Below, piece after piece: positions 9,511 through 43,689 of a DNA stretch of 64,000 nt; position 1 is the first letter of the stretch, and every line of letters begins with the position of its first letter. The position numbers and the translations under genes were made by a program. The stretch is from Negaprion brevirostris (Eukaryota): NCBI GenBank assembly GCA_030324005.1, contig JARDVH010000042.1, positions 108,207,391 to 108,271,390 on the forward strand. Direction: 5' to 3'. The notes under the pieces were generated by a model. That model saw only the letters and a list, made by a program, of their open reading frames with translations. It was not told the DNA's origin and ran no database searches.

Positions 9511-10619
9511 TGTTATTGCTGAGCCAATTTCTAATATTGAACTTAAGGAACCGGAGCAGAAGGAAGAAGTTACTATTCTGCTTTCCTGAATGACTTCCGA
9601 ATCCTTTGCAAATGGAGAGTGTGTCTATTTATCTCTGTGGTATTAAAGTTTCTGAGTAAGTTCAAAATTCCATTTCAGTGTGCTTCTTAAGTTTTGTGTC
9701 ATACCATCCCAATGGAAAAAAACCCATAAAGATGTGTTTAAATTTGACCACAGTACCTGTCATGTCTGCAATAGTTGGCACTGTAATTGGGGATATCCAG
9801 TGTTAAATGTCACATAACGGTAGCTACTAAGACAATATTGAATGCCAATAGCAAAACAAGTTGAAACTGCATGTAGTTGCAGTGTCTGATCATTCAGTGT
9901 CACTGTGGAGCATTCATAATTTCCCTCAGCTAGAAACTGTGTTGGTATAAGTAAATAAATCAAATAAGATTTAAATTTACAAGTAAGGTGGAAACATTTT
10001 TTAATGTACCTTTTCACTGTATCTTCATCTTGATGCCTTCCCTTCTCCAGTCTTTGTCCCACTCTGGTTGGCTTTGCTTCACAAGGTCATTCCTGCCTTA
10101 TCCATCATTCCTTCACGTAATTAACACTTTGCCCACAAATAGTCATCCTGGGGAACTGCCTCAGATATGTACACTCCTCTGAGCGGTCTTTTAGTCCACT
10201 GAATTAATAGGAGTCCTCGTCTTTTTTGTCCTCCCACCATGCCCCCGCTCCATCATCCTGTCCCTGTCCATTTGGGTCCGCTTTTCCTTACTGAGCAGCA
10301 TTTCAGCCCTNNNNNNNNNNNNNNNNNNNNNNNNNNNNNNNNNNNNNNNNNNNNNNNNNNNNNNNNNNNNNNNNNNNNNNNNNNNNNNNNNNNNNNNNNN
10401 NNNNNNNNNNCTATAGTGCTGGGCCAGACGGTGAAATGACCCAATCCCTACCCTTTCCCTGACCCCTGCCATTGAATGGGGCCAATGTCACTGGTCACTG
10501 CTACTAAACCCTTTGTCACACTGAAGAGAAATAAAACCTTGGCCGAATCAACACTGAGCAGGGATACTGTTTCTCACAAATGTGCTCCCCACAATCCCGG
10601 ACTCACCCTACACAACTTA

Positions 10620-11185
10620 GCATCCACTTCCTCCTCTTATCTGTCGTGTGGTCTACACCTTTCTATCGATTTCACCCCTCCTTTTTCCATCCTGCTTAGC
10701 TTTACCCCTTTCCATCCTACTCGCCCTCACTTCCATCTTACTCGCCCTCTTCCATCCAACTCACGCTCTCTTCCCTCTTGTTCACTCTTCCCATCCAGCT
10801 TCCTCCTTCACCTCTCGGCCCAATCCATCCAGGGTCTTGTTTCTCCTTCTTCTCCACTGCGTCGTCCTCCTGTCTACTATTCTTCTCCTCATCTAACTGC
10901 CCGATTCGTTCATTTGCTTTGGTCTCCCATTCCTCGCTCTCTTCCCCCAACTCTCAACCATCCTTCCCAGCTCCTTTTTTTTTGCACCTCTTCCTTCCCT
11001 TCCCCTCTCTCGCTTCCTTTTTCCTATTATCTCCTGTTTCCCTACCATGCCTCTCCTCTTGTCCCCCATGCCTCTTCTCCTTTCTCCCTCTCCTCCGCCT
11101 ACTCTCTTCAATCCCCCATCTTTTCCCCTCTGTTTTCCCACTCTGTCATTCTTTTTCCTCTTCCCCGCCACCCATCTCCCCATTC
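10620..11185. repeat. Long polypyrimidine (C/T) low-complexity tract
   Basis: About 560 bp dominated by C and T on the + strand. Confidence 0.85.
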
Positions 11186-12142
11186 TATTGAAATTTGTTA
11201 CGTGATGCTTATGGTTCGTTGAAGTCATTGCAAGTACCTGTTAGTCCTGTAGGTGGTGCTATGCCAGGCCATCTCATTGTTTAAGGTGTTCTGCTGTGAC
11301 CGACAATGCTGTTAATTTATAGTTTGCATGTATTGCAGTATGACGGTGCAGTCTGCACACGAGCACATCGCTCAAAATCCTCCCCTGAAAAGCAATTAAG
11401 CCATTATTTATTCCTCAATAAAATAAATTAGGATGCTGTTTCCAAAGTAGAGGTTTAAACAGAATGAAATGAAAATGTTACATATTTCATAATGCCATGT
11501 ACCAATTTACAATTTTAATGCAATTATTAAAGTTTTTACTTAAGGTGTCACTTTTGACCCCAAATGTTGTCTTTGACCCGATCATTTTGCCCAGAGCTGT
11601 CTTATTGAATTGTATTTGCATCGTACACTCTGAGTTTATGCACTGTACACAGATTCTCAGAATGCATCGGTACTATTCTGTGTCTGGAGTACAGGTGAAT
11701 ATTCCANNNNNNNNNNNNNNNNNNNNNNNNNNNNNNNNNNNNNNNNNNNNNNNNNNNNNNNNNNNNNNNNNNNNNNNNNNNNNNNNNNNNNNNNNNNNNN
11801 NNNNNNNNNNNNNNNNNNNNNNNNNNNNNNNNNNNNNNNNNNNNNNNNNNNNNNNNNNNNNNNNNNNNNNNNNNNNNNNNNNNNNNNNNNNNNNNNNNNN
11901 NNNNNNNNNNNNNNNNNNNNNNNNNNNNNNNNNNNNNNNNNNNNNNNNNNNNNNNNNNNNNNNNNNNNNNNNNNNNNNNNNNNNNNNNNNNNNNNNNNNN
12001 NNNNNNNNNNNNNNNNNNNNNNNNNNNNNNNNNNNNNNNNNNNNNNNNNNNNNNNNNNNNNNNNNNNNNNNNNNNNNNNNNNNNNNNNNNNNNNNNNNNN
12101 NNNNNNNNNNGTTGTCTGTTTATATTTGGGGGTGCAAGTCTT

Positions 12143-12244
12143 TTGAATAAAGAGAAGTTAGATAAGTTATTAGAATTTTACAAACAATATAAAGCATTAT
12201 CTGAATATATAGATCAAAAATATAAGTTAACATTAAATGATTTG
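12143..12244 (+). other. sarX: Bacterial (Staphylococcus-like) sarX 5' gene fragment, likely assembly contamination
   Basis: TTG start preceded by Shine-Dalgarno-like GGGGGTG (12128-12134). [34 protein letters not shown] closely matches the S. aureus SarX N-terminus as recalled ([34 protein letters not shown]). Very AT-rich and starts ~30 bp from an N gap. Confidence 0.8.
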
Positions 12245-12887
12245 GTTTATCCAGCAGAATCTTTTAGAACTAATTTTATTGAACAGTTTCTTAATGTGTA
12301 TGGGATGCCACATACCAGATATTAGGACTTTTTTTTAGAACATCATTAATAGGTTATAAAAACAATTAATATCCTTAATATTAATTTTGGTAGTGTTGGT
12401 TGAGGAAAGATTGTTAGTGAGAGTAACCTTCACACTTGGAGATTTTTAACACCCATCCGAATACCTGGAACAGACAAGTGGAACCTTTGTTCAGCTTCTC
12501 ATCTGAAGAACAGTCCTTCTGAGGTTACAGTCATCTCCATGCATTGCAAGAAGGAGTCATTCTAAATTTGGAATTCAAGGATTGGATTGGGAATTTCCTT
12601 ATAGCCATCCCTGGTTGATCATACCATTGTGGTGGAAGCAACATTTATGAACATATAAATTTAATTTTGGTCCCATTAATTGGCAGGTTTATGCGGGCAA
12701 CTCCGAGGAAATATTCAGTTAGTATCTCTTATCACTCTTCCTTCCTTTTCAAAATCCAGTGCTCATTGCAGCACTAGATTGAACCTTAGTATTTTGGTTT
12801 CCACAACTGGTGCGGAGTTCAAATAATGGAAAAATTACCTGCGACCTGCACGTGGCAATCTGATTTCACATTCTCCTGTCTCATCTT

Positions 12888-13152
12888 GGCGGAGTGATGA
12901 TGTCACTGGACTAGTACTCAGTCTCAGCTGTATGTAGCTTCATACGATCAAATTAGACCGTGATAATTGTCATTGATTGTTGTAAAAGCTTACCTGGTTC
13001 ACTAATGTCCTTTTGAAGGAAGGAAATCTGCCGTCTTTACCTAGTCTGGCCTACATGTGGCTCTTAAATGCCCTCTGCACTTGTTGAGCAAGCCTCTCAG
13101 CTCATGGGCAATTAAAATGGGCGACAAATGCTGGCCTTCCCAGCCATGCCTA
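12888..13152 (+). mobile_element. tRNA-derived SINE, same family as 6980-7368 (internally deleted)
   Basis: CTGGTTCACTAATGTCCTTT..GAAGGAAATCTGCCGTC..GGGCAATTAAAATGGGCGACAAATGCTGGCC. Confidence 0.7.
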
Positions 13153-13157
13153 AATTA

Positions 13158-13355
13158 AAGAATCTATAGTGCAGAAGGATCCCATTTGGCTATTGAGCCC
13201 GCACTAATAACAATCCTACCCAGGCCCTATCATCGTAACCACACATCTTAACCCTCCTAATCCCACGATACTAAAGGGCAATTTATCAAGGCTAATCAAC
13301 CTAACCCACACATCTTTGGATTATGAGAGGAAACCCACGCTGACGTAGGGAGAGA
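13158..13355 (-). mobile_element. HE1 SINE 3' fragment
   Basis: AGAATCTATAGTGCAGAAGG...CACATCTTTGGA...GGAAACCCACGC. Confidence 0.75.
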
Positions 13356-21144: not shown

Positions 21145-21622
21145 TTTAAAGTTTATATATTTATTAATTAGACACAAGTAGGCTTACGTGAGTGAAGTTA
21201 CTGTGAAAATCCCCTAGTTGCCACACTCTGGTGCCTGTTCGGGTACACTGAGGGAGAATTTAGCATGNNNNNNNNNNNNNNNNNNNNNNNNNNNNNNNNN
21301 NNNNNNNNNNNNNNNNNNNNNNNNNNNNNNNNNNNNNNNNNNNNNNNNNNNNNNNNNNNNNNNNNNNTGAAGTTACTGTGAAAATCCCCTAGTTGCCACA
21401 CTCTGGTGCCTGTTCGGGTACACTGAGGGAGAATTTAGCATGGCCGTTGCACCTAACCAGCATGTTTTTCGGACTGTGGAAGGAAACTGGAGAACCCAGA
21501 GGAAACCCACGCAGACACGGGGAGAACATGCAGACTCTGCACTGACAGTGACCCAAGCCAGGAATCGAACCCGGGTCACTGGCGCTATAAGGCACCAGTG
21601 CTAACCAGTGCACCATCATGCT
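21145..21622 (-). mobile_element. HE1-type SINE, tail B (part duplicated across a gap)
   Basis: ACAAGTAGGCTTAC..GAAGTTACTGTGAAAATCCCCTAG...GGAATCGAACCCGGG..GTGCTAACCAGTGCACCA. Confidence 0.85.
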
Positions 21623-42630: not shown

Positions 42631-43689
42631 TTCCAGGTTGGCCTGTGCTTTGACTGATCTGATACATGGAGATAGTTGAAGCTTTTCAATTAGTTTTGTT
42701 ATCCTTCAATTAGAGGCAGGGAAAGCCATCCAAGGTTTGCACTTAAACAACCCTGCTAGAGGTGTGTGATGTGGATAGATTTAGGTTTAGTTCGGATGTT
42801 TTCTGTGATTGAGGGATATAAAGCAGCAGGTACTTGTTACTGTAGTAATATTGATGTGCTGTAAAATGTTGAGTGGCTTACCCCAGGGATTGGTGGTGGG
42901 GCCCCTACTGTTTCTAATTTACAGTACCAGTGGATTGAGAAGCTTGGTGCTAGCTAATCAAATGCGCAGGTAGTGTAAAGTAAATTAGATAAAATATAAA
43001 AGTGAGCAGCCGGTGCCAGTTCATCCTTAGTAAACTGGGCTGTGGGATTAGATTGGACAGCTCTTTCAAGAATGAAGTAGGTCCTGCTGTGATGTGAGTT
43101 TCGGTGGATTGTGAGTGAATTCAGTGGCCAATTAATGACAGTANNNNNNNNNNNNNNNNNNNNNNNNNNNNNNNNNNNNNNNNNNNNNNNNNNNNNNNNN
43201 NNNNNNNNNNNNNNNNNNNNNNNNNNNNNNNNNNNNNNNNNNNTTAATGACAGTAAGGATTACCAGGAAGTAGGAGCCACAGTGGAGCCTGCTGCTGCCT
43301 TGCAGAAGAGAGCCAGCAAAACCTCCGGACGGTGAATCCCCCTACCCCAGCCACCCTACACTCCCTCAGTGCAAAAATGATCAAACAGTCAAATACAAAT
43401 TCCACTAACTTTATCAACAGGATAAAAACCTTAACTTTTGCTTGCTTTGAATCCAGCAGTTATGCACTGGTGTGTCCCTCCTCTTGGGGTTTTCTGATTG
43501 CAATTTTGAAAATTGCATTCTCACCCTCCCTGGCTCATTAGGAGCTTTATGGTAAATTAATTGAAGGTGAGAGGGTTCCCTATCTTCCCCAGTACTCTTC
43601 CTTCAAAAATCACAGCACACATTGGAACTGGCATTAACCAGTGGTTTTCTTTGGAAGCATGAGTTTTGACTTGCTCTACCTCCTTCCCC

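Follow-up and report, generated by a model that had tools for sequence, protein, structure and literature searches.

The 133 bases at positions 12111 to 12243 of the window (the whole 64,000-nucleotide stretch of Negaprion brevirostris DNA that was analysed) are very probably an artefact, consisting of contaminating DNA joined in error to the edge of an assembly gap, and not part of the animal chromosome. This is indicated by the zero divergence of the piece from its bacterial donor, its read-like length, its position at the gap edge, and the lack of any staphylococcal sequence on the left flank of the gap. An earlier note on this DNA had also taken a contaminant to be the likeliest reading, and the presence of host DNA immediately beyond the piece adds to the support for that view. 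As a class, the piece is most likely an ordinary embedded contaminant, a fragment of a known gene and not a real animal feature. The features discussed are collected in Table 1.

Table 1 Features at and around the bacterial piece, in window coordinates
Feature	Position	Strand	Basis and remarks
Assembly gap, 404 N	11707..12110	.	cuts off the bacterial piece at its outer end
Staphylococcus warneri-type chromosomal fragment	12111..12243	+	133/133 identical to G083 and to a contig of run X14
Shine-Dalgarno-like GGGGGTG	12128..12134	+	sequence; 8 bases before the TTG at 12143; presumed ribosome-binding role
First 34 codons of sarX (34/119 residues)	12143..12244	+	comparison with G083 and with solved SarX
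Chimeric open frame of 60 residues, not taken as a gene	12143..12325	+	34 SarX residues followed by 26 from non-bacterial DNA
15 bases common to S. warneri and the start of an X15 contig	12229..12243	.	contig alignment
Host-side single-copy DNA, including the EQFLNV echo at 12281-12298	12244..12720	.	X15 contigs, 0 differences

The assembly has a length of 2.69 Gb, and the CpG observed/expected ratio is 0.29. There are 26 gaps in the window, over 60,250 called bases, and the mean contig is 2.2 kb. The contig bearing the bacterial piece has 2,874 bases between Ns and lies within a 125-Mb scaffold. No base separates the piece from the gap; for a random piece, the chance of having an end exactly at a gap edge, as computed from the 26 gaps, is about 0.09%. 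Locally repeated sequence is absent at both edges of this gap, which would fit a coverage gap. Two 100-N gaps elsewhere in the window, at 21268-21367 and 43144-43243, are flanked by contig ends that repeat each other (over 75 and 12 bases respectively), which points to overlaps left unmerged when short reads were assembled into many fragments.

The scans of the window did not reveal a host gene. A Pfam scan of 127 of the 133 open frames of at least 75 residues (six low-complexity frames being omitted) gave nothing above cut-off, and no Rfam match was found in the window. The frame at 11473-11706 (+ strand), which abuts the left edge of the gap, has a sub-threshold Pfam match to DUF5079 (23.4 bits, with a cut-off of 27). 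It was rejected on the grounds that none of 86 Staphylococcus genomes gave a protein match, and that the two DNA matches obtained were short and at chance level. The left flank of the gap is not staphylococcal, and nothing in the window truly matches the 1.5 kb upstream of the gene in the donor. Some 500 bases to the left of the gap there is a long pyrimidine-rich low-complexity tract (10600-11180), in which the GC skew falls to -0.78. To the right, high-copy interspersed repeats that recur within the window are found at 12965-13064 and 13153-13335. The summed depth over them of contigs from run X15, which is discussed below, is up to about 300,000; they may resemble elasmobranch HE1-type SINEs.

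The donor of the piece was sought by a DNA search of the same 86 Staphylococcus genomes, of which 31 matched. The best was genome G083, at full identity (133/133, E 2e-64), followed by G084 (96%) and S. pasteuri (92%). The match to G083 is far beyond chance, and the donor matches S. warneri and not S. aureus, with which the DNA identity is 82%. The identical run extends over exactly 133 bases, beyond which only 20 of 67 bases agree. The earlier note had placed the bacterial DNA at 12111-12390; its start is correct, but by sequence comparison the bacterial part ends at 12243. The piece is made up of 32 bases of sarX leader and 101 coding bases, and both leader and codons are identical at the DNA level to the sarX gene of G083. 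The letters of the GGGGGTG motif are also present in G083 and S. pasteuri. The elements that had been described from the letters alone, namely a gap of about 400 N, this motif, a TTG start and 34 residues, are all found where expected (404 N; 12128-12134; 12143), and the proposed identity with SarX is likewise confirmed, both by G083 and by the solved structure 5ywj (E 1.7e-11).

The product of the G083 gene is a protein of 119 residues with zero differences from P0019 (AGC91312.1 and others), named by its sources as a MarR-family regulator of Staphylococcus warneri. P0019 scores 89.5 bits against the TIGR01889 Sar profile, for which the cut-off is 62.6. The donor gene has 71% identity to S. 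aureus sarX over 125 codons, with the same genes on both sides. Because the cut-off is passed and the neighbours are shared, the donor gene is the sarX orthologue. A role for SarX in regulating biofilm genes has been described (PMC8214526).

Other possible donors were considered. A GTDB scan using the 60-residue frame gave six loci from 167 candidate stretches, the best being from S. pasteuri; a match from Clostridia (40%, E 1e-4) was taken as chance. Plasmid records gave only weak short matches. Two records filed as Staphylococcus phage were rejected as donors, having the S. aureus sarX with only 82% identity. These records, OR850129.1 (L002) and OR844990.1, hold the chromosomal sarX region of S. 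aureus, and probably contain host bacterial DNA. An exact copy of the piece was also found in a contig from a terrestrial metagenome run (X14), which is identical over 12111-12243 and has different letters afterwards.

It is of interest to ask how much other S. warneri DNA the assembly contains. A 19.9-kb stretch of G083 around sarX, searched against the 2.69-Gb assembly, matches only at these 133 bases, and four further 19.9-kb stretches, one of which carries rRNA operons, gave no near-identical piece. The 99.5 kb searched represent 4.1% of the 2.43 Mb of G083, and thus the absence of further pieces has low power; it bounds their number at fewer than about 73, with no sign of bulk contamination. 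When the whole window was compared with G083 in four parts, 12111-12243 was the only match; a 27-base match to G084 elsewhere in the window (E 1e-3) was taken as chance. The rRNA/tRNA region of S. warneri has 27 short matches in the assembly, with identities of 67-95% (for example C154:8077503-8077601). None of the 27 is both long and near-identical, and they are probably host sequence derived from tRNA or rRNA, or chance.

On the basis of these observations, we propose that trace S. warneri DNA, coming from handling, reagents or the surface of the animal, got into the library, where one molecule may have become a chimera of bacterium and host, either through ligation or through mis-priming where the two shared a short stretch. 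Reads of the chimera would have overlapped the true host sequence, and would have extended the contig end at a place where host coverage failed. An extension into such a place would stop after about one read length and leave the gap in existence. As a commensal, S. warneri is common on human skin. Cultures from tiger shark mouths have yielded it as well (PMC9636872), so that the source could be either handling or bacteria carried by the animal itself. By chance alone, a genome this large would be expected to contain the 15-base word 22-62 times (here it lies at 12229-12243), and hence partners for mis-priming would abound. Within the artefact explanation, we would give about three quarters of the weight to a chimeric molecule, and about one quarter to a purely computational mis-join via the 15-base overlap. 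A junction made at a restriction site during proximity ligation was considered and rejected, there being no GATC or GANTC at 12243; the lack of GATC at the junction is also a point against an artefact in general.

The piece can be compared with artefacts that have been characterised elsewhere. The Conterminator rule looks for matches of at least 100 bases and at least 90% identity, between a contig shorter than 20 kb and a contig of another kingdom longer than 20 kb (PMC7218494). Here, 133 bases match at 100% between the 2,874-base contig and a 2.43-Mb bacterial contig, so that the rule classes the piece as contamination. Contig flanks adjoining Ns are described in the same source as a usual place for contaminants, and the piece lies at just such a flank. 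Unlike the kilobase-sized human and C. elegans examples detailed in that paper, it is very short, and is fused to the host DNA without any N on one side. It can also be likened to the chimeras formed by strand-displacement amplification (PMC1855051), which also unite unrelated sequences at a sharp join, possibly here with the 15-base shared stretch. That study reports up to 21 complementary bases at chimera junctions, but in only about one third of the joins between distant segments. The chimeras described there differ in being within a single E. coli genome.

Further information on the junction comes from public sequencing runs. Index words of 12111-12420 were found in 20 runs; contigs were aligned for four of these, and only X14 and X15 were informative. 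None of the word-bearing runs is on record as RNA, the run search having been made for DNA. The word share is 0.31 (9/29) for nineteen small runs and 0.62 (18/29) for one large run, X15. X15 comprises 1,961 million letters of contigs and is the only host-sized run that was found. Of the 280 possible 31-mers, the bacterial part accounts for 103 and the X15-covered part for 162, the other 15 occurring only across the junction. This would predict 10.7 bacterial and 16.8 X15-covered words out of 29, and the numbers observed were 9 and 18. The agreement between predicted and observed shares suggests that the two sets of words are disjoint.

Contigs of X15 agree at every base with 12229-12496, 12483-12720 and 13030-13300, whereas 12111-12228 is without cover, as is 12751-12870. 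The first contig thus reaches 15 bases across the junction, where bridging requires 31. The silence of X15 over 12111-12228 says little, because the run is patchy and because some contigs drop out (runs X1 and X7 contain the words but gave none). X15 could moreover be the source run, in which case it would not be independent of the assembly. The bases at 12229-12243 are either shared micro-homology or the trace of a joined molecule, and three readings of the contig start at 12229 remain: that these bases are shared by host and donor, that copies of the chimera are present in X15 as the source library, or that the junction is real. Given that 15 bases fall short of 31, that X15 has other holes, and that contigs drop out, the overlap does not settle the matter and the absence does not either; the readings of the junction have been weighed by their prior probability.

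The last of these readings is the likeliest of the alternatives to a contaminant. It would require that a short piece of S. warneri DNA (up to about 540 bases) was inserted very recently into the animal's chromosome, with its left junction inside the gap; we regard this as improbable. The proposed route, end joining at the 15-base micro-homology to give a functionless insert that is somatic or on one chromosome only, is similarly doubtful, and there is only a slight chance that the junction is a real bacterium-to-vertebrate insertion, caught before mutation and independently seen in X15. In its favour, the 15 bases of the X15 contig cross the junction with no differences, and the right side is joined to host DNA without Ns. 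The former observation also tells against an artefact, since the junction may then be present in more than one read. The same can be said of the lack of a background of other near-identical S. warneri pieces in the 4.1% of G083 sampled, and a real insertion could itself produce a gap. A further point in favour of an insertion is the culture of S. warneri from the tiger shark mouth (PMC9636872).

Other observations speak against it. There are no changes in 133 bases, although a very recent event would be compatible with this; the outer end of the piece falls exactly at the gap, and its length is about that of one short read. X15 has no contig over 12111-12228, its word share leaves few or no bacterial words, and its crossing of 15 bases is shorter than the bridging rule demands. 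Horizontal transfer would normally be recognised from contiguous host DNA on both sides and from divergence from the donor; here the left side is the 404-N gap, and none of the 133 bases differs. In addition, contaminants are far commoner than transfers in animal assemblies, as described for 43 arthropod assemblies (PMC7003083). No published account of the fragment, or of any Staphylococcus-to-shark transfer, was found in a search of literature listings.

A second alternative concerns the right-hand end. If the whole AT-rich stretch 12111-12390 were bacterial, it could be a sarX allele that has been rearranged or has lost an internal part, and the end of which survives as EQFLNV. This is very improbable, more so than a recent insertion, and is already largely refuted. 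It draws on the composition of 12244-12390, which is only 27% GC (as low or lower in 11 of 1128 same-sized windows), and on a five-residue exact match of this tail to the rest of S. aureus SarX, the like of which was produced by just 27 shuffled tails out of 20,000. However, when the tail is aligned as DNA with the rest of sarX, 205 of 500 and 407 of 500 shuffles score as high, and with phmmer the remainder of the frame scores only 1.7 bits against the SarX chains. No match linked to sarX was found for the tail in any of the 86 Staphylococcus genomes, the metagenome and viral contigs searched do not contain a 24-base word taken from it, and a single X15 contig runs through 12229-12496 into ordinary host-like DNA. 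The earlier note had pointed to EQFLNV as an echo of the SarX C-terminus EQFLNI. The motif is indeed present, but because the donor protein ends in EEYLNI it is not donor sequence, and is treated as a coincidence. The host-side stretch after 12243 has a single match in its own genome, and the assembly contains no host-side paralogues that could reveal the true sequence upstream.

Finally, the open frame that crosses the junction was analysed. It runs from the TTG at 12143 to a TAG stop at 12323-12325. The last base of codon 34 (12244) is already non-bacterial, with the leucine retained. Residues 1-34 are those of P0019, except for the reading of the start codon, and over residues 1-35 the frame matches the solved chains of SarX from S. 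aureus (SarA/Rot family; TIGR01889, PF22381), namely PDB 5ywj (E 1.7e-11), 6k8e and 5hs5. In contrast to SarX itself, the frame has only 34 of 119 residues and then continues with 26 from unrelated DNA. It scores 19 bits against TIGR01889, where the cut-off is 62.6, and matches only positions 2-29 of the 109 in the profile. As judged from these comparisons, it should not be counted as a SarX member and would not work like SarX. With 29% of the protein, and the rest of the domain missing, it would have no function; dimer formation and DNA binding are unlikely. A search of the assembly with the SarX protein found residues 1-35 only, in a single copy at this locus.

An old, fixed horizontal transfer that yielded a small sarX-derived host gene is the least credible of all the readings: the sole point in its favour is that the 60-residue frame is open across the junction, and against it stand the complete identity to the genome of a living S. 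warneri where sister genomes differ by 4-8%, the presence of residues 1-35 only in a single copy, and the unsuitability of a TTG start and of a bacterial ribosome-binding site for translation in eukaryotes.

If it is an artefact, as we believe very probable, then the piece at 12111-12243 matters only for curation, and should be masked. A contaminant of 133 bases within a 125-Mb scaffold can seed false calls of horizontal transfer, and can also cause false host matches when reads are filtered. If on the other hand the junction were true, it would be a rare direct case in which bacterial DNA had entered the chromosome of a vertebrate, the repair junction being still readable, and the inserted piece itself would do nothing.
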